From Promethearchaeota archaeon (GTDB taxonomy: Archaea > Asgardarchaeota > Lokiarchaeia > Sigyniarchaeales > SOKP01), in NCBI GenBank assembly GCA_004524535.1, contig SDNY01000022.1:1-38553 (forward strand): a DNA stretch of 38,553 bases. Direction: 5' to 3'. The notes under the pieces are model-generated. The model was not told the origin of the DNA and ran no database searches. It saw only the letters and a program-made list of their open reading frames with translations. This document shows, one piece after another, positions 3,501 through 36,516 of the stretch. The first letter of the stretch is position 1, and each line of letters opens with the position of its first letter. The translations under genes and the position numbers were made by a program.

Positions 3501-6500
3501 TACATGGTATCGGCTCTGGAATGGTACTGAGTGGTCAATAAATTATACTATTCCGGGTTTAGGCTCAGAAAGAACCGGACAAATCAATCAAGATGCTTGG
3601 AATGACTGTCCGAATGGTACTGTCGTTATCGAATTCTATGCGAATTATACCTTCGGCAATTTGAGGATGAATTCTACAACGGTTAGGAAGGATATTCTGG
3701 GACCTTTAATAACTATTAATGATCCTGCTCCAAATGAATTATTTTTATTTAAAGCTCCAGATGACACGGATTGTGATGTAATTTTTAGTGATGTAAGGGG
3801 TATTGATGCTCGATGGCACATGCTAATAAATGCCACAGACAGCAATCACTATACGAACAATTATACGTGGAATGATGAAGTTAATCAGACTGCTTGGAAT
3901 CAAATGGGCAATGGAACTGTTATCATCCGTATTTTTGCGAATGATTCATCGGGGTACATTGGAATGGCAGAAGTTACTGTAAGAAAAAATATTGTAGACC
4001 CATTTATTTCTATTACTAAACCCGATTCAAATGATATTTTCGGGAATAATACAATGAATTTCACAATTTCAGTGTCGGGAAAAGACCTAGATACCATTTG
4101 GTATATGCTAATAAACGGAACAAACAGTAATGATTATACCAACAATTTAACATATTCTAAGACCGTCGTTGCAGGAGAAATTGAAGATACAATTCAATAC
4201 AATTTATGGAATCAATTTGAAAATGGGACGGTTATTATTCGATTCTTCTTGAACAGAACAAACGGAGTGATGGCGTTTGATGATGTTTTAGTGAGAAAAG
4301 ATATTTTGGGACCTTTAATAACTATTAATGCTCCCACTCCAAATGAATTATTTTCCTCAACCGCACCAGGCTTGGCAGATTGCGATGTAATTTTTAGGGA
4401 TGGGAGTGGTATTGCTGCTCGATGGTATATGCTCATAAATGGAACGGATAATACGGACTATACTAATAATTACACTTGGAATGACGAGGTGGATCAATTC
4501 GTCTGGGATTATATGGATAATGGATTTGTTATCATCCGAATTTTTGCGAATGATTCGTTAGGTTACATTGGAATGGCAGAAGTAACCGTAAGGAAAGATA
4601 TTCATTTACCAAGTAATGGAGCGCCCTATAGTTGGGCGTGGGTGTCAGGGAAAAAAACCACAGATGAACCTGGCGTATATGGCACGAAGGGAGTTCCTGA
4701 TATGGCGAACTATCCGGGAGCTAGATACGGATCTGTTTCTTGGACGGATACGGACGGAAATTTTTGGTTATTCGGAGGTTCTGGTTTGAATGACCTCTGG
4801 AGATTTAACATCACCTCAAAGGAGTGGGCGTGGATGTCAGGGAATAAAACCAAAAATCAATGGGGCGTATATGGCACGAAGGGGGTTCCCGATACGGCGA
4901 ATTATCCGGGAGCTAGAGTATGGTCTGTTTCTTGGACGGATACGGACGGAAATTTTTGGTTATTCGGAGGTTCTGGTTATGACGAATCAGGTGGTTCTGG
5001 GTCTTTGAATGACCTCTGGAGATTTAACATCACCTCAAAGGAGTGGGCATGGATGTCAGGGAATAAAAATATAAATCAAAATGGCGTATATGGCACGAAG
5101 GGAGTTCCTGATATGGTGAATTATCCGGGAGGTAGATGGAGTTCTGTTTCTTGGACGGATACGGACGGAAATTTATGGTTATTCGGAGGTTCTGGTTATC
5201 CCGAATCAGGTGGTGCTGGGCGAATGAATGACCTCTGGAGATTTACCATCACCTCAAAGGAGTGGGCGTGGATGTCAGGGAGTAAAACCTTAGGTGATTA
5301 TGGCGTATATGGCACGAAGGGAGTTCCTGATATGGCGAATTATCCGGGAGTTAGACGGGGATCTGTTTCTTGGACGGATACGGACGGAAATTTATGGTTA
5401 TTCGGAGGGTATGGTCGTGCCGAATCAGGTGGTGGGCAGCTGAATGACCTCTGGAGATTTACCATCACCTCAAAGGAGTGGGCGTGGATGTCAGGGAATA
5501 AAACCGTAAATCAAGGTGGTGTATATGGCACGAAGGGAGTTCCTGATATGGCGAATTATCCGGGAGCTAGACACTCTTCTGTTTCTTGGACGGATACGGA
5601 CGGAAATTTTTGGTTATTCGGAGGTTCTTATAGGAATGACCTCTGGAGATTTACCATCACCTCAAAGGAGTGGGCGTGGATGTCAGGGAATAAAACCGCA
5701 AGTGAATATGGCGTATATGGCACGAAGGGAGTTCCTGATATGGCGAATTATCCGGGAGGTAGATACGGTTCTGTTTCTTGGACGGATACGGACGGAAATT
5801 TATGGTTATTCGGAGGTTGGGGTTATGCCGAATCAGGTTTTGATGGGCAGCTGAATGACCTCTGGAGATTTAAAAATTCTATTGCTCCACATATCACGAT
5901 TATTGAGCCTAGGTATAATAAATTATTTAATGCGACGGCTCCTTCATACAACTTAACCTTTATTGATGCTCATTTAGATGATACATGGTATCGCCTCTGG
6001 AATGGTACTGAGTGGTCAATAAATTATATTATTCCGGGTTTAGGCTCAGAAAGAACCGGACAAATCGATCAAGATGCCTGGAACGACTGTCCAAATGGTA
6101 CTGTCGTTATCGAATTCTATGCGAATGATACCTTCGGCAATTTGAGGATGATTTCTACAACGGTTAGGAAGGATATTCTGGGGCCTTTAATAATTATCAA
6201 TAGTCCTGCTCCAAATGAATTATTTTCATTTAAAGCTCCAGATGACACGGATTGCGATGTAATTTTTAGTGATGTAAGTGGTATTGATGCTAAATGGCAT
6301 ATGCTAATAAATGCAACAAATAGCAATCACTATACGAAAAATTATACGTGGAATGATGAAGTTAATCAGACTGCTTGGGAACAAATGGGGAACGGGACCG
6401 TCATTATTTGGATTTTCGCCAATGATTCTCTTGGTAATATCGGGATGGCAGAAGTGATCGTACGAAAGGATATTGAATTACCAAGTATCGTTATTAATGA

Positions 6501-8220
6501 TCCTACTTTAAATGATATTTTCGGCGTGAATACTTTCAATTTCACAATTACGGTTTCGGGAAAAAATCTCGATACCATTTGGTATATGCTAATAAATGGT
6601 ACAGACAGTAATGATTATACCAATAATTTAACATATTCTAAGACCGTCGCTTCTGGTTCAATTGAAGATATGATTAATTATAACCTCTGGAATCAATTTG
6701 AAAATGGAACGGTTATTATTCGATTCTTCTTGAATAGAACGAACGGATTGATATCATTTGATGATGTTTTAGTGAGAAAAGATATAATAGCTCCTGATAT
6801 CATGATAATTGAGCCAGGATATAATAAATTATTTAATGCGACAGCTCCTTCCTACAATTTAATCTTTATTGAAGCTCATTTAGATGATATATGGTATCGG
6901 CTCTGGAATGGTACTAATTGGTCAATAAATTATACAATCGGGGGTTCAGGTTCTCAGAGATTGGGGCAGATAAACCAAGATGCATGGGATGACTGCCCGA
7001 ATGGTACCGTCATTATTGAATTCTATGCGAATGATACCTTAGGCAATTTGAGGATGAATTCTACAACTATTAGGAAGGATATTCTGGGGCCTTTAATAAC
7101 TATTAATGAACCCACTCCGAATGAATTTTTTTCCTCAACCGCACCAGGCTTGGCAGATTGTAATGTTCTATTTAGTGATGGGAGTGGTATTGATGCTCGT
7201 TGGTATATGCTCATAAATGGAACGGATAACACAGACTATACTAATAATTACACATGGAATGAAGAGGTGGATCAATTTGTCTGGGATTATATGGATAATG
7301 GTACCGTCATCATCCGTATTTTTGCGAATGATTCATTAGGTTACATTGGAATGGCAGAAATTATTGTAAGGAAAGATATTTTAGGACCGATAATAAATAT
7401 CAATGATCCTACTCCGAATGAATTATTTTCCTCAACCGCACCAGGCTTGGCAGATTGTAATGTTCTATTTAGTGATGGGAGTGGTATTGATGCTCGATGG
7501 TATATGCTCATAAATGGCACGGATACCACGGACTATACTAATAATTACACCTGGAATGGCGAGGTGGATCAATTCGTCTGGGACTATATGGATAATGGTA
7601 CCGTCATCATCGTTATTTTTGCGAATGATTCGTTAGGCAACATTGGAAGGGCAGAAATTATTGTAAGGAAAGATATTGAATCGCAACCAGGTGGGCAAAT
7701 TCCCGGTGATGATGATGACGATGATGATGACGATGATGATGACGATGATGATGGAATAATAATAATAATAATAATAATCTGTTTCGGTTCTGTAAGTGGT
7801 ATTGCTGCTACTTCTTTATATTATAAACAACACAGAAATAAAAATTTATATAATAAGCCACACAGAAATAAAAAAGCTAAATCAATTCTTAAAAGAAAAT
7901 TTCAAGAATCTAACAAAATTTTCCCTTCTACTCCATCTTCTAAAGAAATCTTAATGGAACTAACTAATAAAAACTTATTACGCCAAATATTTGATACAAA
8001 AAAGATCAAAAAAATTAATGCTATATTAGATAATATATTAGATAATATCGATTTAACTGCGGTATCTGACGAGTTTCTAAGAAAATTGGATTCTTTAAAG
8101 GTAGACAATGAAGAAAAAAGAGAATTTCTTAAAGAAATGCTGCTTTTTTCTCCCGAAGAAAGAAATGAAATTCTTGATAAGATCTTAAAAAGAGTTAATT
8201 CTTATTCTGAAGGCGAATAA
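589..8220 (+). CDS. Giant cell-surface glycoprotein: signal peptide, 3 x six-bladed kelch-type beta-propellers, about 10 Ig-like repeats, poly-Asp linker, C-terminal TM helix, about 130-aa cytoplasmic tail
   Basis: Basic plus hydrophobic N-terminus. 18 repeats of about 73 aa with kelch signature (WLFGG...NDLWRF...EW.W) in three blocks of six. About 100-aa beta-rich repeats delimited by (V)RKDI. Many N-x-S/T sequons. PG-D15-G-I8-CFGSVSGIAATSLYY followed by a basic stretch. Confidence 0.9.
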   Translation: MIKKLKTKIVVIFVLFLIGIAASIISTTFSADVAAGSKKAGSLSTPYSNGATYGWMWMSGNKTINQNGIYGEKGVPDMANYPGARTRSVSWRDTDGNFWLFGGYGYPQSGGDGHLNDLWRFTLTSKEWAWMSGNKTINQNGVYGEKGVPDMANYPGGRWRFVSWTDTEGDFWLFGGTGYAESGGEGYLNDLWRFNITSKEWAWMSGNKTLNQYGIYGEKGVPDIANYPGARYTSASWTDTEGNLWLFEGFGYAESGGTGRLNDLWRFNITSKEWAWMSGNKTLNQYGIYGEKGVPDIANYPGARSFSISWTDTDGNFWLFGGYGYTESSGDRWLNDLWRFNITSKEWAWMSGNKTIDEYGVYGTKGNPDMANYPGARGNSVVWTDTDGNLWLFGGYGYAESGGLGWLNDLWRFSITSKEWAWMSGNKTINQNGVYGEKGVPDMVNYPGARSASVSWTDTDGNFWLFGGDGYAESGGTGRLNDLWRFKLGCAEESQPDGATYGWTWMVGDKNIDQYGVYGEKGVPDMANYPGTRERSVSWMDTDGNFWLFGGEGYAESGSYDRLNDLWRFNITSKEWVWMSGNKTTVEHGVYGEKGVPDIANYPGARWSSVSWTDTDGNFWLFGGDGYAESGGNGRLNDLWRFNITSKEWTWMSGNKTTGEHGVYGEKGVPDMANYPGARSFFVSWTDTDGNFWLFGALGYDESGGYGHLNDLWRFNITSKEWAWMSGNKTINQNGIYGEKGVPDRVNYPGGRERSVSWTDTDGNFWLFGGIGYNESGDYGRLNDLWRFNITSKEWAWMSGNKTINQNGVYGEKGVPDIENYPGGRVDSASWTDTYGNLWLFGGYGYAELGGNWWLNDLWRFNITSKEWAWMSGNKTTGEHGVYGEKGVPDMANYPGARSASAFWTDTDGSLWLFGGFGYAESGGVGRLNDLWRFKDSIAPYIMIIEPRYNKLFNATAPSYNLTFIDAHLDDTWYRLWNGTEWSINYTIPGLGSERTGQINQDAWNDCPNGTVVIEFYANYTFGNLRMNSTTVRKDILGPLITINDPAPNELFLFKAPDDTDCDVIFSDVRGIDARWHMLINATDSNHYTNNYTWNDEVNQTAWNQMGNGTVIIRIFANDSSGYIGMAEVTVRKNIVDPFISITKPDSNDIFGNNTMNFTISVSGKDLDTIWYMLINGTNSNDYTNNLTYSKTVVAGEIEDTIQYNLWNQFENGTVIIRFFLNRTNGVMAFDDVLVRKDILGPLITINAPTPNELFSSTAPGLADCDVIFRDGSGIAARWYMLINGTDNTDYTNNYTWNDEVDQFVWDYMDNGFVIIRIFANDSLGYIGMAEVTVRKDIHLPSNGAPYSWAWVSGKKTTDEPGVYGTKGVPDMANYPGARYGSVSWTDTDGNFWLFGGSGLNDLWRFNITSKEWAWMSGNKTKNQWGVYGTKGVPDTANYPGARVWSVSWTDTDGNFWLFGGSGYDESGGSGSLNDLWRFNITSKEWAWMSGNKNINQNGVYGTKGVPDMVNYPGGRWSSVSWTDTDGNLWLFGGSGYPESGGAGRMNDLWRFTITSKEWAWMSGSKTLGDYGVYGTKGVPDMANYPGVRRGSVSWTDTDGNLWLFGGYGRAESGGGQLNDLWRFTITSKEWAWMSGNKTVNQGGVYGTKGVPDMANYPGARHSSVSWTDTDGNFWLFGGSYRNDLWRFTITSKEWAWMSGNKTASEYGVYGTKGVPDMANYPGGRYGSVSWTDTDGNLWLFGGWGYAESGFDGQLNDLWRFKNSIAPHITIIEPRYNKLFNATAPSYNLTFIDAHLDDTWYRLWNGTEWSINYIIPGLGSERTGQIDQDAWNDCPNGTVVIEFYANDTFGNLRMISTTVRKDILGPLIIINSPAPNELFSFKAPDDTDCDVIFSDVSGIDAKWHMLINATNSNHYTKNYTWNDEVNQTAWEQMGNGTVIIWIFANDSLGNIGMAEVIVRKDIELPSIVINDPTLNDIFGVNTFNFTITVSGKNLDTIWYMLINGTDSNDYTNNLTYSKTVASGSIEDMINYNLWNQFENGTVIIRFFLNRTNGLISFDDVLVRKDIIAPDIMIIEPGYNKLFNATAPSYNLIFIEAHLDDIWYRLWNGTNWSINYTIGGSGSQRLGQINQDAWDDCPNGTVIIEFYANDTLGNLRMNSTTIRKDILGPLITINEPTPNEFFSSTAPGLADCNVLFSDGSGIDARWYMLINGTDNTDYTNNYTWNEEVDQFVWDYMDNGTVIIRIFANDSLGYIGMAEIIVRKDILGPIININDPTPNELFSSTAPGLADCNVLFSDGSGIDARWYMLINGTDTTDYTNNYTWNGEVDQFVWDYMDNGTVIIVIFANDSLGNIGRAEIIVRKDIESQPGGQIPGDDDDDDDDDDDDDDDGIIIIIIIICFGSVSGIAATSLYYKQHRNKNLYNKPHRNKKAKSILKRKFQESNKIFPSTPSSKEILMELTNKNLLRQIFDTKKIKKINAILDNILDNIDLTAVSDEFLRKLDSLKVDNEEKREFLKEMLLFSPEERNEILDKILKRVNSYSEGE
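736..3390 (+). repeat. Intragenic 219-bp tandem repeats (12 kelch units, two propellers)
   Basis: Near-identical DNA units; gaatgacctctggag recurs at a 219-bp period (e.g. about 933 and 1152). Confidence 0.95.
4615..5872 (+). repeat. Third block of 6 kelch repeat units (two units with shortened loops)
   Basis: Same unit as above but with GTKG instead of GEKG. The GGSGLND and GGSYRND units lack the GY.ESG loop. Confidence 0.92.
7708..7779 (+). repeat. In-frame trinucleotide microsatellites (GAY)15-GGA-(ATA)7ATC encoding poly-Asp and the poly-Ile TM start
   Basis: Read directly from the sequence. Confidence 0.95.
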
Positions 8221-24484: not shown

Positions 24485-25846
24485 TCATTGATTAGATTTA
24501 GTTTTTTTTAAAATTTCAGCTCGTTCATCTAAAATTTTTTTAATTGCATTCTTATCTTCACCATACCATCTTAAAGCTAAAAACCACAGCAGAATTCCAG
24601 GAATTATTAAAAGAGAAACTATTACAACGGTTAATTGATAATTTAAACTGGTCATAGTTAAAATAATTCCGACAATCAGAGGTCCTGCGCCAAAACCGAA
24701 ATTTTCTAAAAGTTGATTCCAGGAAGTAATTTTCCCTTGGGCTTCAGGAAGGTTTATTTCTTGGAGAAGAGGAGCTTGATTAACCATATATAGTGAAGAT
24801 ATTATGCTAGAAGTAAAAAATAATGCCCCCCAGATCCATATCATTGGTATCGAGAATAGATATGGAATATCCCGCCCTTGTTCTACTGTTAAATGTGGCA
24901 AAGGAATAAAAAACAGAAGAATAAAAGTAATAACATTCACGCTAAGAGCTATAATTATAAAATAGATTCTACTTATAGGATGGGTTTTAGCAACTTTATC
25001 CGAGAACCTAGCAAGAAATAATTGACCAATTAATCCCCCAGTTAAACTAAATACAATTAAAAAGATACCAGTAAAAACGGGAGAAAGATTATGGGGTTCA
25101 GTTTGTATAAAAGGTAAAATTAATAAATATAGGCTACCCATTAGAATATTTGTTGAAATACCTTCAATTAGCGCAACAATATTAGTTTTACTTAACATGG
25201 TTTTTTTCATCATTTTGCGATCAATTTGGAATTCATATTCAATAGAATCATCTTTAAGAAGCTCATTAAGTTGTTCTTCTTGGCTCCCTCTTTTAGGCTC
25301 TTTAATGTGAATAAAAAAGAAAAAACCAGCAACTATTATCGACAACCCAATCCACCAGAAATAAAGCCTCCAATATCCATATTGAACAAAAGCAGAAGCT
25401 ATTAAAAACCCAAATGTAGTAAATAAACCCATTATAATCCCCAGAATCCCAAAAAAGCGGGAACGATAATCCTTTGGAACGATATCGTTTGAGAGGGAAA
25501 CGATAGAAGGCCAAGAACCTCCCGTAAAAAAAGCAAAAATAATGATATATAATAAGAAATACCACCATGTTTCCATACCTTTCCCCTCATCCACAAATCC
25601 AATCAAGAACATACTAATTCCTCTAAAAATCGAAATTGCAAAAATTATCTTAGTTCTTCTAAATTTATCGATATAGAATCCAAAAAAAATCCCTGCCGCT
25701 GCCGATACCCAAAATAATACAGTAATTAAAATTCCCATTTCTAGCGCATGATATGGATCATTGGGCCATATTATAAATGATAATGGGACAACAAGAACAA
25801 TTAATCCTCCAAAAGCTAAACTTTGAAAACCGCCTAAGAGGAACAA
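24485..25846 (-). CDS. MFS transporter
   Basis: About 12 TM segments; GFYIDKFRR motif A, VPKDYRSRFFG and EPKRG. Frame is open upstream, so the true start may be near ATA 25891. Confidence 0.92.
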   Translation of the reverse strand: MFLLGGFQSLAFGGLIVLVVPLSFIIWPNDPYHALEMGILITVLFWVSAAAGIFFGFYIDKFRRTKIIFAISIFRGISMFLIGFVDEGKGMETWWYFLLYIIIFAFFTGGSWPSIVSLSNDIVPKDYRSRFFGILGIIMGLFTTFGFLIASAFVQYGYWRLYFWWIGLSIIVAGFFFFIHIKEPKRGSQEEQLNELLKDDSIEYEFQIDRKMMKKTMLSKTNIVALIEGISTNILMGSLYLLILPFIQTEPHNLSPVFTGIFLIVFSLTGGLIGQLFLARFSDKVAKTHPISRIYFIIIALSVNVITFILLFFIPLPHLTVEQGRDIPYLFSIPMIWIWGALFFTSSIISSLYMVNQAPLLQEINLPEAQGKITSWNQLLENFGFGAGPLIVGIILTMTSLNYQLTVVIVSLLIIPGILLWFLALRWYGEDKNAIKKILDERAEILKKTKSNQ

Positions 25847-26257: not shown

Positions 26258-27049
26258 TTGAAAATGAATGACCAAAAAATAATTAAAAAATTACGGGAAC
26301 GCTCGTTTCGTGGTGTAATTTTTGATTTTGATGGAACACTGTTGGATGTTATGGAACCGCTTAAAAGATCAATTGAAGAAGTTTACACTGAAAAGAACAT
26401 CCAAGCAGACATGGAACTTACAATACAAGAAATTGGAACTACATTGGAATCAATCCAGGGATATCCTATACCTAAAATACTACTCCAATCATATGAAATT
26501 TTCAAGGCCATCTCTAGTTTGAGCCATTTAAGATATCTCAAAAAATTGCGTATTGCAATGAAAATCTTTGGAAAATACCAGGAATATTCAAAAGAAGCAT
26601 CGATATTTCCTGGCTCAAAAGAACTAATTTCTTTTCTTAAAAAAGATTGCGTTCTTTTTATTGTATCTCACAATCAAACAAGAAGTGTTATAGAATCAAT
26701 AGAAAAGGAGGGGCTTGAAAAATATTTTGAAGATTTTTATGGGGCCGATAAACTTCCCGCTCTAAAACCACACCCAGACGCTTTTCTCCCTGTTTTAGAG
26801 AAATATAAAAAGATTAAAGGATCTGAGTGGTTATTATTTGGAGATATGCCCACTGATATTGAAGCTGGTAAAGAAGCTGGATTGTGTACTGTAGGAATAG
26901 CAAGTGGGATTAGTAAAAAAGAAGTCTTAGCTGAGTTCCGGCCAGATTTATTGGTCAATTCAATAACAGAATTATTAGAGCTCCTTGGTATTAAAAATGG
27001 TCATAGTTCAAATTCTAATGTTCAAACATCATTAAAAATTAAATCTTAG
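26258..27049 (+). CDS. HAD-superfamily phosphatase
   Basis: DFDGTLLD, IVSH, KPHPD and GDMPTDIEAGKEAG. Confidence 0.93.
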   Translation: MKMNDQKIIKKLRERSFRGVIFDFDGTLLDVMEPLKRSIEEVYTEKNIQADMELTIQEIGTTLESIQGYPIPKILLQSYEIFKAISSLSHLRYLKKLRIAMKIFGKYQEYSKEASIFPGSKELISFLKKDCVLFIVSHNQTRSVIESIEKEGLEKYFEDFYGADKLPALKPHPDAFLPVLEKYKKIKGSEWLLFGDMPTDIEAGKEAGLCTVGIASGISKKEVLAEFRPDLLVNSITELLELLGIKNGHSSNSNVQTSLKIKS

Positions 27050-27062
27050 GAGGTTAAAATAA

Positions 27063-28715
27063 ATGGAAATTCCTAAAACTGATTTAAAAGAAGCACAAAA
27101 ACAAATAAAAAAAGAAAAAGTAAATTTGGAAATTGAAGAGAAAGATCAAGATTTATATGAGAAACCTCATGAAAAATTGCTATATAAAATATTAAAACAT
27201 AACCCTATCGATTATATAAATAATATATTACGTTCTATCTGCGATAAGTTCACAATACAAGATGAAGTTGACGAATTCCAATGGTGGCTTGCTTATGCTT
27301 TTTGGTGTAAATCATCGATGCGTCTCTTCTGGAACTATCGCACAGAAGGTCCCGTGGCTCCCGAGCATGGTGGTGCGGTAATAGTATCAAATCATAATTC
27401 TCATTTAGATCCATTCTTCGTTGGTGGATCAGTCAATAGACCAATTAGATGGATGTCTAAAAAAGAAAATTTTAAAACGCCTATAGTAACTACTCTTTTC
27501 AAAAATTTAGGTGCTTTCGAGCTTGATCGTGATAATCCAGATGAGGGGATGGATAAGGCGAGGGAATTACTTAAAGATGGAGAGTATGTAGGTATATTCC
27601 CTGAAGGAACTCGAGCTGAGAACGGAGAGATGGGAGAATTTCGTACTGGAGCAGTTAGACTTGCAATTGAAACGGGTGTACCAATATTACCATGCGTAGT
27701 TTTAGGATCTCGCGATGCACTTCCAAAAGGCAAGTTAGTGATGAGACCAACTAAAGTAACTTGTCGGCGCGGAGAACCAATTTATTATGAGGATTATTAT
27801 GGAAAGGAAATATCTTATCCCGAAATCAAAAGACTAACTGACGAATTACGAGAGGTTATAATCGACTTATATGAAGGCAATAATGAGGAATCAAAAGAAT
27901 TATCGATTGGATATCCTAAAGATATGGAAGATAAACCCAAATCAAGTGGATTTAAAGGAATCCTTAAAAATATACAACATCATATTTTATGGAGTGTCGA
28001 TGATTTTTGGTATGCACTTCTTAAAAGTCTAGATATGATCGGAGCACGAGACGCATTTACAAAACCAATATATGGCTTGACAGGCGTGTTATTAACTGCT
28101 TATACTGATTTAATTAATCCAATTAAAGTCATAGATTTTGATAAACATATCCCTGAAGAAGGTGGAGCGCTTATTGCATGTGGTCATAGCTCAGAGTGGG
28201 ATGTATTAATGCTTCCTTTAGCCATATGGCAAAATGGAAGTCGACAATTATATCAAATGGCAAAAGAATCTTTATTCAAAATACCAATCGTAAACGCTTG
28301 GGTAAGAACACATCACGCATTTCCATTAAGAAGAGGGGACCATGATATAAGCTCATTCAATACTGGCAAAGATCGATTAGAAGAGGGTCAGCTTGTTGTT
28401 GTTTATCCTGAGGGAACAACCAATCTAGGAGGGGGAGAACTATTAGAAGGTCATACAGGAGCAATTCGCTTGGCGATCGAAGCAAAAGTACCTATTATCC
28501 CCGTTGGAGTAACTGGTACCGAAAATATATATCCAAAACATGCAAAAATGCTCAATTTTGGAAAGGGATGTATATTTAAGGCTGGAAAGCCTTTTATGGA
28601 GCATTCACAATATTTCGATAAACCAATGCCAAAATATGACGAGCTTAGAAGATTAACTAATATCTTGATGGAGAGAATTAAGGATCTAATGTTTTATAAT
28701 AACCCTAATGTTTAA
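27063..28715 (+). CDS. Tandem two-domain PlsC-like glycerolipid acyltransferase
   Basis: Domain 1 NHNSHLD...FPEGTR; domain 2 GHSSEWD...YPEGTT; both keep HX4D. Confidence 0.93.
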   Translation: MEIPKTDLKEAQKQIKKEKVNLEIEEKDQDLYEKPHEKLLYKILKHNPIDYINNILRSICDKFTIQDEVDEFQWWLAYAFWCKSSMRLFWNYRTEGPVAPEHGGAVIVSNHNSHLDPFFVGGSVNRPIRWMSKKENFKTPIVTTLFKNLGAFELDRDNPDEGMDKARELLKDGEYVGIFPEGTRAENGEMGEFRTGAVRLAIETGVPILPCVVLGSRDALPKGKLVMRPTKVTCRRGEPIYYEDYYGKEISYPEIKRLTDELREVIIDLYEGNNEESKELSIGYPKDMEDKPKSSGFKGILKNIQHHILWSVDDFWYALLKSLDMIGARDAFTKPIYGLTGVLLTAYTDLINPIKVIDFDKHIPEEGGALIACGHSSEWDVLMLPLAIWQNGSRQLYQMAKESLFKIPIVNAWVRTHHAFPLRRGDHDISSFNTGKDRLEEGQLVVVYPEGTTNLGGGELLEGHTGAIRLAIEAKVPIIPVGVTGTENIYPKHAKMLNFGKGCIFKAGKPFMEHSQYFDKPMPKYDELRRLTNILMERIKDLMFYNNPNV

Positions 28716-28717
28716 AA

Positions 28718-29743
28718 ATGAGAGTAGGTATCCCCCGAGCACTTCACTATTACAAATTCTTCCCTTTTTGGAAAAAATTATTTGATGAATTGAATGTCGA
28801 AATAATCCTTAGTTCACCAACTAATAAAAAAATAGTAGAAGTTGGAGTAATGCATGGATTTGGAGAATTATGTCTCCCTGTGAAAGTTTATTACGGCCAC
28901 GCTCTCCAATTAATAAATGAACATCCTGAGTTAGACTTTCTATTTGTTCCGAGATATGTTTCTGAGTTAAAGGAATCCTTCTGGTGTCCAAAATGGATAT
29001 CTCTTCCGGATGTTATTAAAATTCTGCCAAACTGCCCAAAATTATTAAATTTTGAAGTAAATGTGAAAGAATTTCCGATTGCCACAGCAGTAATAGAACT
29101 TGGTAAGCAATTAGGGAAAAGTCAGTCTGCTTCATTAGGGGCATATAAAAAAGCCCAAAAATATTATGATGAGTATTTAGAATTTTTAAGGAAAGGAGTT
29201 TCTGTCATTCATGCGTTAAGGCTAGTGTTAAGAGACGCCCCTTTCAAAGTGCCAAAAAGAAAAAGTAAGGGTTCTATTAAATTCCTATTATTAGGGCATG
29301 CTTATAATCTCTTTGATACTTATATAAATTTAGATTTCGCAAAAAAATTGAATGATCAAGATGTTGAGGTTATCACGATTGAAAATATGCCCGAGCACAT
29401 TTTTAAAGACCCCGTAATTGTCAATAAGAAGCTTCTAAATTATTGGCGTCATGAAGAAGAAATAATGCAGGCTATTAGATATTTTTTAACTAAAGGGCGT
29501 AATGAAATCGATGGAGTAATCTTTCTCATAAGCTTCGCTTGTGGTCCGGATAGCCTTATATCAGAATTAATAATGCACGACATGAAAGCTGTAGGAATTC
29601 CTTATCTCGCAATAATAATCGATGAGCATTCTAGTGATTCTGGACTTTTGACACGCGTAGAATCCTTTACCGATATGATTAAAAGGAAAATACAAAAACA
29701 AGAATTAAAAATAAAACAGGAACCAAAATTAAAAATAACTTAA
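28718..29743 (+). CDS. DUF2229 / acyl-CoA dehydratase-activase-associated subunit (PlsA/PlsR-like module)
   Basis: MRVGIPRAL, CLPVKVYYGH, CPKW, LLGHAYN, SFACGPDS and IDEHS...GLLTRVESF. Confidence 0.85.
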   Translation: MRVGIPRALHYYKFFPFWKKLFDELNVEIILSSPTNKKIVEVGVMHGFGELCLPVKVYYGHALQLINEHPELDFLFVPRYVSELKESFWCPKWISLPDVIKILPNCPKLLNFEVNVKEFPIATAVIELGKQLGKSQSASLGAYKKAQKYYDEYLEFLRKGVSVIHALRLVLRDAPFKVPKRKSKGSIKFLLLGHAYNLFDTYINLDFAKKLNDQDVEVITIENMPEHIFKDPVIVNKKLLNYWRHEEEIMQAIRYFLTKGRNEIDGVIFLISFACGPDSLISELIMHDMKAVGIPYLAIIIDEHSSDSGLLTRVESFTDMIKRKIQKQELKIKQEPKLKIT

Positions 29744-29947
29744 GATAATATCAGAAAAATCAATTTCTATAAGCAAAATTTTTTAAATCTTTTATTTTTA
29801 ACATTTCTTTAATTTTCTCATTGGAAGGCATATTAATATCTAAGAAATAGGCTTCGTAAATATTTTAAAATCTGATATGTCTAAATCATGTAAAAGAAGC
29901 GTCCAAAGATAGGAGTTATCTTTGGCATTAAAAAAAAAACTAAGAGC

Positions 29948-30127
29948 TTATTTTTTCGTGAGATCTATTATCTCATTCTTTAGATTGGAATAAAAATCCG
30001 CTAATTTACCATCATAATCAACATTTTCTAAATCTTTCAATAATACTTCTACAGCTTCTTTTGATTTTAAAACGAGGTCGTCATTAGTAGAAACGATATA
30101 GAAATCTTTTGGTTCTAGAACGAAAAG
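29948..30127 (-). pseudogene. 3' remnant of an unidentified gene
   Basis: 59 sense codons with protein-like composition (FVLEPKDFYIVSTNDDLVL...IIDLTKK*) and no start codon. Confidence 0.45.
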
Positions 30128-30282
30128 TCAGAGTAAATATTTAAATTGAAATATTTCCTTTCTCTCTATTATATTAATGAGTTTAACTTTATGTTTGAAG
30201 TAAATTCAGATCAAAAATATTGTATAAAGATTTAATCTACTTCTTATAAAAAAATAAATATCCAAATTACTTTTAATTATAT

Positions 30283-30525
30283 ATGACACATCGAACGATA
30301 GATTTACCTGAACAAATTTATAAAGAATTGATGAAATTAAAACAAAAAAATGAGACCGTTTCCGAGGTAATTTCTCGTTTGATTAAAAAGGAAAAACCTA
30401 TAAAATCAATTAAAAAATTCGCAGGTATTTTTCAAAATTTTTCCGAAGAATGGGAATCTATTGAAAGAGCTCTTTATAAAGATCGTTTAAGGCAAACGAA
30501 CGAAAGAACACTTAATTTTGAATAA
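30283..30525 (+). CDS. vapB: VapB-family antitoxin (DUF217-like)
   Basis: RTIDLPEQIYKELMKLKQKNETVSEVISRLI...KFAG; overlaps the downstream PIN gene. Confidence 0.85.
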   Translation: MTHRTIDLPEQIYKELMKLKQKNETVSEVISRLIKKEKPIKSIKKFAGIFQNFSEEWESIERALYKDRLRQTNERTLNFE

Positions 30526-30946
30526 ATCTATTTTTGATGAGATGCCAATATTAGATAGTGATATTATTATCGCTTATTTCCGAAATGTTCCAAAAGCAGT
30601 TGAGATTATTGATAAGTTTGTTAAGGAACAGAAAATTCTGAAAACTACTATTTTCAATGTGGCAGAATTATATAAAGGAGCATATCTCTCCTCGAAAGTA
30701 AAAGAGAATATTAAAGAAATAGAAGAATTTTTAGAAAATGTAACGATTATTGATTTTACTATAAATGATGCCATAAAATTTGCCAAAATTTCAGCAGAAT
30801 TAAGACAAAAAGGTGAAATGATTGGTGATTTTGATGAATTAATAGCAAGTGTAGCTATTAATAATAATGAAACTATTTTCACGAGAAATATCAATCATTA
30901 TGAAAGAATTCCTCAATTATCATTTAAGAATTGGGAAAAAACATAA
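30518..30946 (+). CDS. vapC: VapC PIN-domain ribonuclease toxin
   Basis: LDSDIII, AELYKG, IGDFDELIASVA and TRNINHY. Confidence 0.92.
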   Translation: MNKSIFDEMPILDSDIIIAYFRNVPKAVEIIDKFVKEQKILKTTIFNVAELYKGAYLSSKVKENIKEIEEFLENVTIIDFTINDAIKFAKISAELRQKGEMIGDFDELIASVAINNNETIFTRNINHYERIPQLSFKNWEKT

Positions 30947-31018
30947 ATTAAACAATATAAAAATTAAAAATAACCTCAATCTAACTTCGTTTGTTATACT
31001 ATTCTTCTCTATCTATCT

Positions 31019-31432
31019 TTATTTTCTCTTTTTCCAAGATCTTAGTTGTAGCTTGAATATATCTTCAAATTTTTTATCTGTAGAGTATATAATATTCGTG
31101 TCATGCTTTTTACAGGTCATTGCAATTATTTCATCGTGCAATTCGTGGCTCTCCATATTCTCTAGCATTAATTTAAGGATCTCTAAGTTAAAATCATCTA
31201 TAATGATATTTTCTGATTTTTCCCATCGATCAAGAGCTTCTCTAATCACATTTATTTTCCCTACTTTTCTCATTTTCCAAAATAACTCCGCTATTGCGAT
31301 AGTAGGTATAATTACTGTTATTTTTCCATCTATCACTTTTTTCTTCAGTTCTTGAAGCATTGAAGGGATTTTCTGATAGTCATAATGAAAATAAAATAGG
31401 ACTTGAGCGTCGATTACTACTATCTCTGTCAT
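31019..31432 (-). CDS. vapC: PIN-domain toxin
   Basis: VIDAQV, IAEL, LHDEIIA and STDKKF. Confidence 0.85.
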   Translation of the reverse strand: MTEIVVIDAQVLFYFHYDYQKIPSMLQELKKKVIDGKITVIIPTIAIAELFWKMRKVGKINVIREALDRWEKSENIIIDDFNLEILKLMLENMESHELHDEIIAMTCKKHDTNIIYSTDKKFEDIFKLQLRSWKKRK

Positions 31433-31457
31433 TTTAAATCAACTGGAAATTATATAA

Positions 31458-31733
31458 TCAATTTTCATTAGGAAATAATGATTTTTTCGCTTCATCTAAC
31501 TCCTCCTCACTAAACGGAGATATTCCTTCAAATAAGTTATCTTCAATTTCGAGAGGATGAATCTTTTTTTTGATTAAAATCGTTTTATCATCTTTCAATT
31601 CCATTTCGACTAAATTCTTATCGTCAATAGCTAATTTGTCCCTCCAATCTTTTGGTATGACAATTCTTCCGTTTGATGAAACTTTTTGAGTTATTTTCTC
31701 AGTCATTTTTACCATTATTTTGTTGATTGTCAT
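31458..31733 (-). CDS. AbrB/MazE/SpoVT-family antitoxin
   Basis: KVSSNGRIVIPKDWRDKLAI; the real start may be a downstream ATG (31715 or 31706). Confidence 0.9.
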   Translation of the reverse strand: MTINKIMVKMTEKITQKVSSNGRIVIPKDWRDKLAIDDKNLVEMELKDDKTILIKKKIHPLEIEDNLFEGISPFSEEELDEAKKSLFPNEN

Positions 31734-31753
31734 TATACTATAACAAATGACAA
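31727..31753. promoter_or_regulatory. Palindrome TTGTCATT-N11-AATGACAA, probable TA autorepression operator
   Basis: Perfect 8-bp inverted repeat at the 5' end of the AbrB gene. Confidence 0.5.
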
Positions 31754-32003
31754 CAAATAAATCTTTTCAAATTTAGAATATTTTAAACAAAATATCTTGA
31801 TGAAATTGAATAATTAGAAGATAGTATCTACAATAGTTGCTTAGATCTAAATTAAAAGCATTATGTAATTTATTTTTCTCATACTATTGATAATATTTAT
31901 CTATTGGAGATATTTTTATATAAAACTGATTTATTTAAACAAAATTTTGTTTAAGTAAATTTAGAATTTAAATTTAAATAAGTTTAAAAAGATTTACGAT
32001 AAG

Positions 32004-33194
32004 ATGCTAGCTTCATTTCCAAATATGGGTCTGAGTTGGGTGGCTTTCAAGACATTAGTTGAATGTATGGGGGTAGATGTAGTTTTGCCTGACCCTACTA
32101 ATCGAGAAGCAATAAAAATAGGTGTAAAATATAGTCCCGAATTTGTTTGCTTTCCTTTTAAAGCAACACTCGGAGATCTCAAAAACGCACTTGACAAGGG
32201 AGCAGATACCCTAATAATGGCCATAGATTGCGGACCCTGCCGTTTCGGATTTTATGCAAGCGTTCAGGAGCGGCTTTTAAAAGAAATGGGTTATAAAAAC
32301 TTTAGATTAATTCCTCTTGACCAGGCTGATTTACTATCGTTCCGGTGGCTTAAACTCATATTCAAGATTGGTCCTTCCAATAGATTGGCATTATATTCAA
32401 AAGCTCTAAAAGCTGCCAAGTTTTTCCTGAAAAAAGCCAAATATCTTGAAGATATTCAAACTGCAGAGGGAATTTTTCGGGCTTACGAGCGAAATCAAGG
32501 AGATACTACTAGAGTAGTTAATAAATTAGTAAAACAACTTGACGAAACTAATACAAGTAAAGGATTTCGTGAATTCCGCAACGTTATAAAAGATACATTT
32601 AACAATATGGATATTGATAAGAATCGCAATCCCCTAAGAGTAGGGATTTCAGGAGAGATTCATATCAGTTTAGAACCTTATGTTAATCTTGATATTAGAC
32701 GGAAATTAGGGGAAATGGGGGTTTTAGTTACTCAATCTCTAAGTCTTTACGATTGGATTGTTCATAAATTCCATCTCAATTATCACAGGAAGTGGCTTGA
32801 GCATCTTGCACGTCCTCATATACCTATGGATATCGGGGGAGAAGCTGTATGGGTGATAGGAGAATATATTGAAAAAGCTAAAGCTGGATTTGATGGATTT
32901 GTGCACCAATATCCTTTCACCTGCATGCCTGAGGTTACTGCCCGAACAATTATTACAAATCATTTACAAAAGAAATACGATTTACCTGTAATTTATTTCT
33001 CATTTGACGAACAGACGAGCTCTACAGGGGGATTTCGCACAAGGCTGGAAGCGTTTGTAGACTTAATGCACGCTAGACGAGATAAAAAAATTGAGGATCA
33101 ACAAATTTCAATAGAAGCATATAAAAAAATCGCTTATGATCATTACGGAAACAATTTTTATAATGAATGTGTTCAATTTGTTCAAACAAAATAG
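32004..33194 (+). CDS. 2-hydroxyacyl-CoA dehydratase-like / CoA-activase-associated subunit (PlsR-like module)
   Basis: SFPNMG, SPEFVCFPFKATLG, GPCRFGFY, GISGEI, PFTCMPE and FDEQT...RTRLEAF. Confidence 0.85.
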   Translation: MLASFPNMGLSWVAFKTLVECMGVDVVLPDPTNREAIKIGVKYSPEFVCFPFKATLGDLKNALDKGADTLIMAIDCGPCRFGFYASVQERLLKEMGYKNFRLIPLDQADLLSFRWLKLIFKIGPSNRLALYSKALKAAKFFLKKAKYLEDIQTAEGIFRAYERNQGDTTRVVNKLVKQLDETNTSKGFREFRNVIKDTFNNMDIDKNRNPLRVGISGEIHISLEPYVNLDIRRKLGEMGVLVTQSLSLYDWIVHKFHLNYHRKWLEHLARPHIPMDIGGEAVWVIGEYIEKAKAGFDGFVHQYPFTCMPEVTARTIITNHLQKKYDLPVIYFSFDEQTSSTGGFRTRLEAFVDLMHARRDKKIEDQQISIEAYKKIAYDHYGNNFYNECVQFVQTK

Positions 33195-33201
33195 AGGTTA
33201 A

Positions 33202-34262
33202 ATGAAAATGGTACAAGTTTCAGATAAGGTCGCTCCTAGCGATAATAAGAAAGACGCTTTCCTTGGTATAGATGCTTTCTAAATTATAGAAGCAATACAA
33301 ATGTTGGAAGCGTCAGTTTAAAATTTGTTCTAATAGACACAGATGGGAATGTACTTACAAGCGTATTCTTAAGAAATAAGGGGTCACCTATCGAATCTGT
33401 TAAAGAAGGAATGGCACAATTAAGAAAGCAAGTAGAGGCAAGTGAAGAATTGCAAGGGTTTGAAATACGAGCTTGTGGAACGACGGGTTCCGCTAGATAT
33501 TTAACCAAAGCCGTTGTTGGCGGAGATCTTGCTAAGACGGAGATTATAGCTCACGCTGTAGGTGCCCAATCTGAATATCCTGATGTGAGAACAATACTAG
33601 AGATTGGAGGACAAGACTCGAAGATGATCCTCCTCCGAGATGGGATCATAGTTGATTTTGCGATGAATTCTGTCTGTGCAGCTGGGACGGGCTCTTTCCT
33701 TGATCATCAAGCTTCAAGGCTTGAAATCCCTATTGAAGAGTTTGGAAGTTATGCTGTAAAATCGACAAATCCAGTTTCAATAGCCGGGAGATGTACCGTA
33801 TTCGCTGAATCTGATATGATTCATAAGCAAAATGCGGGATATTCTCGTGAAGACATTATTGCTGGTTTATGCGATTCATTGGTTCGAAATTATTTGAATA
33901 ATTTATCCAAGGGAAAGGATTTAGACTCCCCAATTGTTTTTCAAGGCGGTGTTTCTTTTAACGCAGGGATTGTACAAGCTTTTGAGAGACACCTTGGTGT
34001 TAAAGTGGTCGTCCCTAAGCATAACGTTTTAATGGGGGCAATAGGCATGGCAATTCTAGTGAGAGATCATTACCTTAACCATGAAACTGAAACTGTATTT
34101 AGGGGATTTGAAGTTGCAGAAATAGATTTTGTCACGTCAGCCTTTAACTGCGGTGATTGTCCCAATAATTGCGAAATTGTTCAAGTTAAAATGCCAGATG
34201 AGGAGGATAAGGTGATAGCTCGATGGGGAAGTCGCTGTGGAAAATGGAACGAACTCATATAA
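33202..34262 (+). CDS. Acyl-CoA dehydratase activase (HgdC/BadFG-type ASKHA ATPase, [4Fe-4S]); join(33202..33271,33301..34262), 343 aa
   Basis: Spliced N-terminus ...AFLGIDVGSVSLK; TTGSAR, EIGGQDSK, MNSVCAAGTGSFLD, RCTVFAESD, FQGGV and C-terminal CGDCPNNC...RC. GAGGT lies upstream of ATG 33202/33208. Confidence 0.9.
33272..33300 (+). other. Putative 29-nt bulge-helix-bulge (BHB) intron in a protein-coding gene
   Basis: GUAU/AUAC 4-bp central helix, 3-nt bulges AGA and AAA, intron stem UGCUU(U)CUA/UAGAAGCA, exon stem GACGCUU(U)CC/GGAAGCGUC. Cuts after bulge nucleotide 2 restore GAT GTT GGA. Confidence 0.85.
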
Positions 34263-35319: not shown

Positions 35320-36516
35320 TTAAAAATCCTCGTCTTCATCAAAATCATCATCATCAAATTCAGCCTCGCTAGGTCTAGGGGCGAGAAAAACCTTCATTTC
35401 AGTATTATCTAACTCCTTAAATTTCATATATGTATTTAAGGGGTGATCGGTCTTCACGCTAAAATCTACTGTATCTCTTTTAGATAATATCTCGGACATT
35501 TTGCCTATCTGCTTTAAAAAGGTAAAAGAATACGCGCCACAACATTCTTTTTTCTGTAGCATATTCTCCAATATGGTTTTACTGCTCAACGATAACTCCC
35601 CGTCTTTGAGCTCTTCTTTAATAGGACTTAAATCAAAATAAAGGTTCTTAATGTTGTTTTTCTTCCAAATAATGTCCCCTTCTCCCAGTTGTCCTTCCTC
35701 CGAGAAGCTAATTTCATTTGGTCTGACCTTAATCGTTATGATTTCGCTGTATAAATCCATATTCCTTAAGACATACTCTAACTTGGAAGGGGAGATCGAA
35801 AACCCGGACGGGTAAACTATTCCTGAAACCATTTCTATGGGTACTTCTTCCATATCAAGATCTAAGGGTTGTAGGGTTCTGTTGATGGTGGAATTGTATT
35901 CTCTGGATTTAATGGTTATATAGAGGCGATCTTCTGCAAAAGTTAAGGTCGTCTGTGAATTATCGGTGCTATTACATTTGATTAGCTTTTGAAGATCATC
36001 AAGATTGATGCCTAATTTGCCTTCTCTTAAAAATTGATAAGATTTGCCTCTTAGTTCTATGTGAAATAAACAGATTCTTGAAGGATCCATAACAGCTATT
36101 TTGATATAGTCTTTTGTGGCCATGAATTCTATCTCGTCTATAATTGAGCTAAAAATTCTAAAAAAATTGTGCAAGGGATAAGAAGGAAAAGAGATTCTGC
36201 AAAATGCATTCTTATTTATCAGCAACTCCAATCTCCCCTGTAAATCTCTTAAAAACTTTTTCTTTCTCTGGATGATTTCCTTTGGTTTGATAAATGAATA
36301 TTCGGTAAAAATGGCGTCTAATTTAGAATTAATCTCGCTTGAGAATCTTTTCTGGAAGGTGCTGGTCTTCTCTACGAAGATAGAGGAGGATGATTTTTTA
36401 TTATAGGAAAAAAGTAGAGCGTCGAGCTTTTCGCTAAGCTCTTTGTCCTGCTCTCCTTTTTCCGCTAAGTCTGCCCAATAACTATCCTTTTCTGCTTCAA
36501 CCATTTTTCTGATCAT
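35320..36516 (-). CDS. pcn: Divergent PCNA (sliding clamp) with about 105-aa N-terminal extension and an internal insertion
   Basis: SSIIDE, MDPSRICL, GINLDDL.K, YSF.FL, KTDHPL and FLAPR, plus an acidic tail. Confidence 0.85.
   Translation of the reverse strand: MIRKMVEAEKDSYWADLAEKGEQDKELSEKLDALLFSYNKKSSSSIFVEKTSTFQKRFSSEINSKLDAIFTEYSFIKPKEIIQRKKKFLRDLQGRLELLINKNAFCRISFPSYPLHNFFRIFSSIIDEIEFMATKDYIKIAVMDPSRICLFHIELRGKSYQFLREGKLGINLDDLQKLIKCNSTDNSQTTLTFAEDRLYITIKSREYNSTINRTLQPLDLDMEEVPIEMVSGIVYPSGFSISPSKLEYVLRNMDLYSEIITIKVRPNEISFSEEGQLGEGDIIWKKNNIKNLYFDLSPIKEELKDGELSLSSKTILENMLQKKECCGAYSFTFLKQIGKMSEILSKRDTVDFSVKTDHPLNTYMKFKELDNTEMKVFLAPRPSEAEFDDDDFDEDEDF

Follow-up and report, generated by a model that had tools for sequence, protein, structure and literature searches.

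A conserved Lokiarchaeial gene cluster joins tandem PlsC acyltransferase to a split DUF2229 system and is a candidate for ester-to-ether reduction of acylglycerolipids

Introduction

The possible presence of bacterial- or eukaryote-type lipids in Asgard archaea is a central question of the lipid divide in eukaryogenesis. The locus described here raises this question at the level of single genes: could one gene cluster of a Lokiarchaeial genome install fatty-acyl chains on a glycerol backbone and also reduce the resulting esters to ethers? The cluster lies at positions 26258–34262 of a 38,553-nucleotide (nt) stretch of DNA, referred to below as the window (contig SDNY01000022.1, assembly GCA_004524535.1, Promethearchaeota archaeon of the class Lokiarchaeia). 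It encodes a HAD-type phosphatase, a tandem PlsC acyltransferase, two subunits named here DufA and DufB after the Pfam family DUF2229, and an activase. An earlier note on this DNA, made from its letters without database searches, had read these genes as a split three-subunit ester reductase coupled to acyltransferases and akin to the bacterial enzymes PlsA/PlsR and Ger.

Parts of this picture are already in print. PlsC was reported in Lokiarchaeota, along with the possibility of chimeric lipids (PMC6737245), and plsY and plsC were reported in Asgard genomes (PMC13400652). Homologues of Ger were listed in Lokiarchaeota, including MK-D1, and in Heimdallarchaeota at DIAMOND E ≤ 1e-50 and coverage of at least 30% (PMC13159169); the split genes may be among them. 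DUF2229 is the Pfam family carried by Ger; the Thermotoga maritima enzyme has the architecture BBDHDDH, that is, two activase domains, DUF2229 and then small D and H pieces, and the BBD arrangement is conserved in all alkyl-ether producers examined (PMC13159169). When expressed anaerobically in E. coli, Ger of T. maritima and of Desulfatibacillum alkenivorans yields 1-alkyl glycerol ethers (PMC13159169). Plasmalogens are made by plsA/plsR (PMC9702350, PMC12838417), and PlsA comprises the domains Act1, Act2, Red1 and Red2 together with a [4Fe-4S] cluster (PMC12838417).

What appears new here is the operon linkage and the split form, while Ger homologues and PlsC in Asgard archaea are already published; we found no prior description of the linkage or of a split three-gene form in the open-access literature searched. 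The bearing on the lipid divide claimed by the earlier note is partly in print already (PMC13159169, PMC6737245). By analogy with the characterised DUF2229 enzymes, we regard a conserved Lokiarchaeial lipid operon catalysing acylglycerolipid ester-to-ether reduction as an evenly balanced proposition.

Gene content of the cluster

Family searches of the window covered 13 open reading frames (ORFs), scanned against Pfam, and NCBIfam models with their own cut-offs. The features are listed below with their Pfam evidence; the cluster comes first, followed by the genes of two toxin–antitoxin (TA) modules and a divergent transporter of the major facilitator superfamily (MFS).

26258..27049, + strand: HAD-IA type phosphatase (HAD_2, E 8.4e-26; DxDGT near the N-terminus)
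27063..28715, + strand: tandem PlsC/AGPAT-type acyltransferase, 550 aa (PF01553, E 5.7e-62 in two stretches)
28718..29743, + strand: DufA, DUF2229 subunit, 341 aa (PF09989, E 6.9e-43)
32004..33194, + strand: DufB, paralogous second subunit, 396 aa (DUF2229 piece, E 5.9e-10; HGD-D end, E 1.7e-8)
33202..33271, + strand: activase, first coding piece (from its start codon up to the break within the phosphate-1 motif)
33272..33300, + strand: 29-nt insert in the activase (alignment to three relatives; bulge-helix-bulge-like fold)
33301..34262, + strand: activase, second coding piece (BcrAD_BadFG ATPase and Cys-rich C-terminal tail; PF01869, E 2.3e-41)
30283..30525, + strand: VapB-like antitoxin of TA module 1, 30283..30946 (PF02697, E 2.1e-9)
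30518..30946, + strand: PIN toxin of TA module 1 (PF01850, E 1e-10)
31019..31432, − strand: PIN toxin of TA module 2, 31019..31733 (PF01850, E 4.8e-10)
31458..31733, − strand: AbrB/MazE-type antitoxin of TA module 2 (PF04014, E 8.2e-13)
24485..25846, − strand: divergently oriented MFS transporter, perhaps an accessory gene (MFS_1, E 7.2e-35)

Each assignment within the cluster that had been proposed from the letters alone (HAD phosphatase, double PlsC, DUF2229 subunit, dehydratase-like subunit, activase) was confirmed by Pfam and NCBIfam. The phosphatase, acyltransferase and dufA genes are co-oriented, and are separated by gaps of 13 and 2 nt, in agreement with the earlier note; the activase starts at 33202, after a gap of 7 nt from the end of dufB at 33194.

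The double PlsC matches TIGR00530 with 178 bits (NCBIfam cut-off 103), and both of its domains carry both catalytic-type motifs, HX4D at residues 111 and 375 and PEGT at residues 179 and 448. The second-domain HX4D and PEGT are found in 20/20 family orthologues, and the first-domain PEGT, searched by pattern, in 16/20. The protein has no clear transmembrane anchor and no AMP-binding domain. Triple-PlsC proteins of 866–883 aa occur in class-level relatives and in Helarchaeota, and a third PlsC-like gene follows the activase in four relatives; in the genome of the window this gene is located on another contig (C79). In one family of genomes (f4; G038, G040, G042 and G044) many PlsC matches contain one in-frame TGA; such a match may cover a pair of genes, or the codon may be subject to readthrough.

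The HAD protein keeps the DxDGT nucleophile motif in its translation and matches the HAD_2 profile, while every NCBIfam equivalog match is far below its cut-off. We propose a lipid-phosphate or glycerol-phosphate as its substrate.

Linkage of PlsC and DufA across genomes

Sixty related genomes were searched; DufA matches were accepted at E ≤ 1e-20, an orthologue was defined as a stand-alone protein with E ≤ 1e-86, and coordinates were collated by hand. Matches to the double PlsC were found in 56/60 genomes and matches to DufA in 54/60. A stand-alone DufA orthologue is present in 51 genomes. In 48 of these, the contig with DufA also carries a PlsC match at a distance of up to ~3.1 kb, and in 42 the distance is no more than 400 nt. 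The exceptions (G042, G046 and G058) are fragmented assemblies with the two genes on different contigs. A further genome, 92% complete in 10 contigs (G001), possesses neither the double PlsC nor a PlsC-linked DufA, and contains only the FAD-fused paralogue described below. The linkage of PlsC and DufA is far beyond chance. Conservation of this linkage across Asgard genomes, which the earlier note had named as a check on its reading, thus extends across the order and beyond (48 of the 51 genomes with a DufA orthologue).

Gene order was followed in 20 loci of relatives. The double PlsC and DufA are adjacent in all 20. The HAD gene lies directly upstream of the double PlsC in 15 loci and 4.3 kb off in one; it was not found in two, and the contig ends in two others. 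DufB and the activase directly follow DufA in nine loci and follow it after insertions in two; in four they do not lie within 5–9 kb of it, and in the remainder there is a contig end or another DUF2229 system.

Loci from named genomes were collected through an alignment of nine sequences. Eighty were kept, mostly Asgard, with the bacterial context sampled in six loci; nearly all come from Promethearchaeota metagenome-assembled genomes, and the cluster members nearest to DufA are named for Promethearchaeota or Lokiarchaeota. The order PlsC(-PlsC)-DufA-DufB-activase is present in Ca. Lokiarchaeum ossiferum and in Promethearchaeum syntrophicum MK-D1, both of them cultured. A Woesearchaeote has the order PlsC-A-activase-B. 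A Helarchaeota contig (L124) and a contig binned as the bacterium Deferrimicrobium (L125) have the same arrangement of a gene for an 872-aa triple PlsC, a gene for a 490-aa HAD protein and DufA-DufB-activase. The two DufA proteins form sister branches of the tree, which suggests either transfer between domains or an error of binning.

Several neighbouring genes were recorded alongside. A gene for a Gtr1/RagA-like small GTPase follows the activase in L. ossiferum (L122, 11906–12859) and in MK-D1 (L123, 11809–12747), and MK-D1 has genes for a PadR regulator and a protein with two transmembrane segments just upstream of PlsC. Three uncultured bacteria (L129, 5664–7923; L132, 3257–5495; L136, 485–2732) have a split DufA-DufB-activase set with no PlsC beside it. 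This set divergently adjoins genes for a B12-binding radical SAM protein (532–540 aa) and a DUF2085 membrane protein, which may represent another lipid-tail-modifying partner.

DufA and DufB as relatives of fused reductases

DufA matches DUF2229 (PF09989) over its whole length with 147 bits (cut-off 29.4), and the N-terminal piece of DufB matches it with 39.6 bits. The HGD-D family (PF06050) covers only the last ~60 residues of both proteins (DufA, E 1.5e-6; DufB, E 1.7e-8; model positions ~281–342 of 342), and the best PDB sequence match of DufA, HadC (3o3m_B, E 6e-4), is limited to residues 261–321. Because the likeness to HGD-D and HadC is confined in this way, an identity as amino-acid-fermentation dehydratases, which the earlier note had listed as fatal to its proposal, was rejected. 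No gene for a CoA-transferase or 2-hydroxyacid dehydrogenase was found among the 13 window ORFs scanned.

Conserved cysteines are at positions 52, 90 and 275 of DufA and 49, 79 and 307 of DufB. AlphaFold models have mean confidence (pLDDT) of 94.8 for DufA and 85.2 for DufB. The DufA model matches 3o3n_B best (Foldseek E 1.3e-10) and also 6eno and 8s02_B, with template modelling (TM) scores of 0.5–0.58 for the three; the DufB model best matches 6eno (Foldseek E 4.6e-8) and also 3o3m and 8s02. These structures belong to 2-hydroxyisocaproyl-CoA dehydratase, the double-cubane reductase and BzdNO/MbdON subunits, with TM scores of 0.44–0.58 and identity of 9–16% over both proteins. Judged by profiles and models, DufA and DufB are distant members of the ATP-dependent radical-enzyme superfamily, in its DUF2229 branch.

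An exhaustive representative search with DufA gave 2611 relatives at E ≤ 1e-3 and 392 at E ≤ 1e-30. Among the best 150, nearly all are stand-alone proteins of ~300–380 aa. Longer homologues are of three kinds: fusions to a flavin adenine dinucleotide (FAD) domain of ~810 aa; A-B fusions of ~700–720 aa (range 690–770), more than a dozen, named for Chloroflexi and Dehalococcoidales; and BBD-type proteins of ~1400 aa, with two BcrAD_BadFG activase domains ahead of DUF2229, named for Deltaproteobacteria, Syntrophaceae and Aerophobetes. Hidden Markov models (HMMs) built for DufA and DufB recognise in the ~1400-aa proteins, behind the two activase domains, a full-length A module (200–235 bits) and then a B module. 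Because the HMMs place A and then B behind the activase domains, the split archaeal system has the same parts in the same order as the BBD proteins.

The likeness extends to individual residues. DufA C52, C90, Y196, W243, C275, G276, P277, D278, D302, H304, T312 and R313 are present in 24/24 BBD A-domains, K56 in 22/24, and H61, S279, E303 and E315 in 23/24 each. For DufB, C49 and C79 are each found in 36/45 and C307 in 35/45 BBD B-domains, and all three cysteines occur together in 32/32 split and 16/18 A-B fused B-domains. The activase tail CxxCxNxC...RC is present in 30/30 split activases; a looser four-Cys tail ends the second activase domain in 7/9 BBD proteins checked.

A tree was built with FastTree only from 151 rows and rooted on eight DufB sequences; the set was thinned by omitting 13 loci of family f1 and by keeping one in two of the BBD proteins and of the stand-alone representatives. 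The A-domains of BBD proteins form one clade (support 100), defined by architecture in a tree without characterised PlsA, PlsR or Ger sequences. DufA of the window belongs to a 34-row clade (support 99) that holds Lokiarchaeial PlsC-linked genes, FAD-fused paralogues, genes of Helarchaeota, Woesearchaeota and Bathyarchaeota, and a handful of bacterial genes (Deferrimicrobium, Omnitrophota, uncultured). This clade branches from within a group of stand-alone and A-B fused proteins. The tree topology argues for a related yet distinct split subfamily, and the 392 representatives found at E ≤ 1e-30 show that split DUF2229 systems make up a large clade. Surveys that require the BBD fusion, or coverage of at least 30% of a 1400-aa query, may miss such systems.

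Proposed function

The analysis establishes the domains present, the collinearity with the fused enzymes, the common signature residues, the fold class and the conservation of gene linkage. From these we infer the following scheme, in which the substrate and product, the donor of the acyl groups, the stoichiometry of the subunits and the part played by the HAD protein are proposals. The tandem PlsC would perform two AGPAT-type acyl transfers onto a glycerol-phosphate backbone, and the HAD protein would remove phosphate from the lipid or from a backbone intermediate. The probable acyl donor is acyl-CoA, because neither acyl carrier protein (ACP) nor PlsY was found in the genome, and the tandem PlsC would then carry out both acylations. 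The genome also has 13 matches to AMP-binding ligases, two GDPD genes and a weak GpsA-like match; it is 3.66 Mb in size and 99% complete, with genes for Nop5, fibrillarin and PCNA. Together with GGGPS and the names of the cluster members nearest to DufA, these genes uphold an Asgard origin of the DNA. DufA and DufB are predicted to form a heterodimeric iron-sulfur enzyme with three conserved cysteines per subunit, and contact between them is argued from the existence of A-B fusion proteins. The BcrAD/BadFG activase, a separate protein that is probably homodimeric and bears an extra Cys4 tail, would hydrolyse ATP and pass a low-potential electron to DufA/DufB. The reaction that analogy makes most likely is an anoxic reduction in which an acyl ester on glycerol becomes an alk-1-enyl or alkyl ether. 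It is proposed because PlsA/PlsR and Ger are the only characterised DUF2229 enzymes.

A number of observations weigh against this scheme. On the side of phylogeny and architecture, DufA shares only 26–33% identity with BBD A-domains and lies outside their clade; the system lacks fused tandem activase domains and has a single separate activase, of 343 aa once the insert is removed, and none of the four DUF2229 matches in the genome has a BBD-type frame. On the side of gene linkage, three f4-family genomes (G038, G040 and G044) have PlsC matches with no DufA found at E ≤ 1e-20, DufB and the activase are not within 5–9 kb of DufA in 4/20 fetched loci, and in the genome studied here two TA modules interrupt the cluster, with the reading frame of the activase disrupted at the DNA level. 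The third PlsC-like gene of relatives lacks HX4D and PEGT by pattern in 6/6 cases. The genome contains GGGPS, and no match to PlsY or to PP-binding/ACP was found in it. Lipid analysis of MK-D1 gave archaeal lipids only, although ester lipids were possibly missed by the method (PMC13400652).

The kinship to PlsA/PlsR/Ger proposed by the earlier note is partly supported. Placement of the subunits in the DUF2229 branch, and not with HgdABC-type enzymes, is borne out, as are collinearity and shared signature residues; however, DufA falls outside the BBD-architecture clade of a FastTree phylogeny that has no characterised sequences as anchors. Likewise, the notion of a split three-subunit ester reductase coupled to acyltransferases stands as to homology, collinear architecture and linkage, but the split clade is a distinct one and does not show the BBD arrangement.

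Insertions and the interrupted activase

One explanation of the locus is decay in this genome: the TA insertions would uncouple dufB and the activase from the promoter, and the 29-nt insert would be a frameshift killing the activase.

The gap between dufA and dufB is 2260 nt (29744–32003) and holds two VapBC-type TA modules with the usual layout of such modules: the genes of module 1 overlap by 8 nt, and those of module 2 are separated by 25 nt. In the closest relative (G008, proteins 92–97% identical) the genes for HAD, double PlsC, DufA, DufB and activase form one unbroken row; TA modules are absent there, and the activase gene is uninterrupted. On one contig of sequencing run X4, positions 29699 and 32000 are separated by 63 letters of other sequence, so that both TA modules are absent, while a second X4 contig keeps module 2 only. 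Contigs of the probable source run show the form seen in the window and are not independent evidence. The interruptions of the cluster are recent and variable among populations.

Other genomes have other material at the same place. The genome of the window encodes a paralogous system on contig C98 (L008, 5258–10034), consisting of an 806-aa FAD-DufA-like fusion, a 343-aa activase 53% identical to that of the window, and a 444-aa DufB-like protein. It adjoins dihydroorotate dehydrogenase genes, and its FAD domain is of VAO/PCMH type, with cytokinin dehydrogenases and DprE1 as closest solved relatives. A link of this domain to alkyl-dihydroxyacetone phosphate synthase (AGPS) was considered and rejected, since AGPS reached only E 0.007 and cytokinin dehydrogenases and DprE1 are closer. 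The FAD-fused paralogue lies downstream of DufA directly in two genomes (G005, G027) and after a BBD-type pair in a third (G018). In the latter (L041, 12019–16401), HAD, double PlsC and DufA are followed by a BBD-type 985-aa protein with two activase domains and DUF2229, placed on a very long branch of the tree, and then by a 474-aa protein with no Pfam match. Because TA modules, the FAD-fused paralogue or other inserts occupy the dufA–dufB junction in different genomes, this point seems to take up insertions repeatedly, with several DUF2229 systems collecting beside the acyltransferases.

The activase matches TIGR00241 with 174 bits (NCBIfam cut-off 125). Its BcrAD_BadFG match spans 33411–34259 and model positions 54–269 of 271, with the first ~53 positions absent from the ORF. 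The N-terminal part is encoded in another frame, by an ORF at 33202–33279 counted to its stop codon, the coding part of which ends at 33271. In the alignment, a precise insert of 29 nt is absent from the activases of three relatives (G008, G002, G004). Run X3, which belongs to another study, has a DNA contig in which exactly 29 nt are missing at 33272. The insert sequence occurs nowhere else in the genome, and its nature affects whether the cluster is functional in the strain of the window.

Introns with a bulge-helix-bulge (BHB) fold are found in archaeal tRNA and rRNA, and an mRNA intron is found in cbf5 of Crenarchaeota. RNA folding around the insert (33245–33335) gives z = -2.25, with the exon flanks pairing over 9 bp. 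The fold contains a 4-bp helix, 33266–33269 with 33295–33298, and a 3-nt bulge at 33270–33272 on the first strand, 3′ of the helix. The second strand has seven unpaired bases (a 4x7 internal loop), which become a 3-nt bulge at 33299–33301 if two G-U pairs form; this canonical form has -16.8 kcal/mol, against -19.6 kcal/mol for the minimum-energy fold, at a cost of 2.8 kcal/mol. Symmetric cuts in both bulges remove 29 nt and give a 343-aa frame with no stops and with the phosphate-binding motif GIDVGS restored; the joined protein matches the G008 activase at 325/342 residues. The genome carries two EndA-family genes and RtcB, and aragorn calls tRNA introns of 8–70 nt in it, with its count of 12 tRNAs probably an undercount.

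We lean slightly towards the insert being a real BHB intron, while a plain inactivating insertion keeps at least a lesser share of the probability. In the strain of the window, the activase would be made after removal of the BHB-like insert, or its role might be taken by the paralogous activase on C98.

We consider decay of the cluster unlikely. In its favour are the activase frame, broken in the DNA, the absence of the insert from three relatives and the X3 contig, the variable presence of the TA modules and the move of the third PlsC to another contig. Against this, all five ORFs are otherwise intact and 92–97% identical to those of G008, the insert sits exactly between two 3-nt bulges around a 4-bp helix with the z value given above, so placed that symmetric cuts restore the frame, and the genome has both the EndA-family and RtcB genes and a 53%-identical paralogous activase.

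Other reactions and sources of lipid

The cluster might instead catalyse another radical reaction on an acyl thioester or lipid tail, such as hydroxyacyl-CoA dehydration or the reduction of an unsaturated or aromatic acyl-CoA, and so tailor the chains installed by the acyltransferases with no ether bond formed. The solved structures related by fold (3o3n, 8s02, 9g87, 6eno) comprise only CoA-thioester enzymes and a small-molecule reductase, the clade of the window is separate from the BBD clade, and AMP-binding ligases are numerous in the genome. The paralogous system is fused to a VAO-type flavoprotein domain, a hint that members of the split clade differ in their substrates, and in the three uncultured bacteria described above the split system stands beside B12-radical SAM and DUF2085 genes, not PlsC. 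However, the resemblance to the CoA enzymes is confined, for HGD-D, to the last ~60 residues and, for the fold, to the TM scores and identities given above; the window ORFs scanned include no CoA-transferase or 2-hydroxyacid dehydrogenase; and the signature residues are those of BBD proteins. Moreover, the characterised DUF2229 enzymes, PlsA/PlsR and Ger only, act on glycerolipid esters (PMC13159169). Such a reaction seems doubtful to us, and ester-to-ether reduction is kept as the preferred reading.

The divergent MFS gene suggests a further alternative. Its product has several hydrophobic segments and a weak likeness to the transporter part of the LplT-Aas model NF006386 (E 1.5e-5, model positions 67–409), and the double PlsC hits that model in its acyltransferase part (E 1e-33). 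An MFS orthologue lies near the cluster in six loci of relatives (L040, L041, L042, L046, L058, L059), and in MK-D1 an MFS gene is located 2.6 kb upstream. An LplT/Aas-like scavenging route, with uptake and re-acylation of lysolipids of bacterial partners and a reductase modifying the scavenged lipids instead of de novo synthesis, would fit these matches, the recurrence of the MFS gene, the syntrophic life of the cultured relatives, the two GDPD genes and the failure to find PlsY or ACP in the genome, but we hold it to be improbable: the MFS match is a weak one, the MFS gene lies anywhere between 0.3 and 6 kb from the cluster, the two intact acyltransferase domains are enough to carry out both acylation steps on glycerol phosphate, and the route differs from the preferred reading in the source of the backbone only.

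Implications for Asgard membranes

PlsC and Ger homologues were previously listed apart in Asgard genomes; here the acyltransferases and a Ger/PlsA-like reductase meet in one conserved operon, with linkage in 48/51 genomes that have a DufA orthologue and in both cultured species. With a set of three to five genes, and with 1-O-alkyl or alk-1-enyl acylglycerols as the lipids to look for, the question becomes testable in existing cultures. If ester-to-ether reduction holds true, the archaeal lineage closest to eukaryotes would have a second, bacterial-style ether-lipid route, giving mixed membranes. If the activase mRNA is spliced through the BHB fold, a short intron would serve as a switch that restores the reading frame, in formal likeness to the splicing of XBP1/HAC1 in eukaryotes. 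The full combination, in which Lokiarchaeia including two cultured species have a self-contained operon (GPAT/LPAAT-like tandem acyltransferases, a phosphatase for lipid phosphates and a split, ATP-driven ester reductase) that builds fatty-acyl glycerolipids and converts them to alkyl or alkenyl ethers, and some strains splice the activase mRNA by BHB, is a speculative proposal that we rate as rather unlikely in its entirety.

Other features of the window

A 2543-aa ORF at 589–8220 has G+C content of 0.37–0.43, compared with ~0.30 elsewhere, and a GC skew of 0.26–0.32, strong relative to the rest of the window. At 35320–36516 on the minus strand, a 398-aa PCNA-like protein is encoded, with PCNA domains beginning at about residue 115 after a long N-terminal extension. 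Rfam and tRNA scans of the window gave no match.

Comparison with known systems

Ger (Tmari_0479; SHJ90043) is the closest point of reference for the reductase part. BcrAD_BadFG, DUF2229 and the HGD-D end follow in the same order in both systems, signature residues are shared, and the host is an anaerobe. However, Ger is a single chain of ~1400 aa with two activase domains, whereas the window encodes three genes with one activase and linkage to PlsC and HAD genes. PlsA/PlsR of Clostridium perfringens (CPE1194–1195) and the single-gene PlsA of Enterococcus, Lactococcus and Bifidobacterium, compared here by their published description, are likewise anaerobic and combine activation with two reduction/dehydration domains; the C. 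perfringens system is also divided into separate genes, while the division in the window is into A, B and activase.

The dehydratases and reductases HadBC/HadI, HgdAB/HgdC, BzdNOPQ, MbdONPQ and DCCP/DCCP-R are related at the level of fold. They share with DufA and DufB the subunit fold, the logic of a heterodimer with an ATP-driven activase and the three-Cys cluster sites, but the system of the window has no CoA-transferase or dehydrogenase partners, and its activase has an extra Cys-rich tail.

The acyltransferase resembles bacterial PlsC and LplT-Aas in having PF01553 with HX4D and PEGT in both domains, a TIGR00530 score over the cut-off and an MFS gene nearby. It differs in uniting two domains in one 550-aa chain, and it lacks a clear transmembrane anchor and an AMP-binding domain.

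Finally, the 29-nt insert has in common with archaeal BHB introns of tRNA and rRNA the 4-bp helix, the 3-nt 5′ bulge, a 3′ bulge that is 3 nt long only with two G-U pairs, and symmetric cuts that restore the frame. It differs from them in lying in a protein-coding Asgard gene and in a canonical form that is 2.8 kcal/mol above the minimum, and is a candidate intron.

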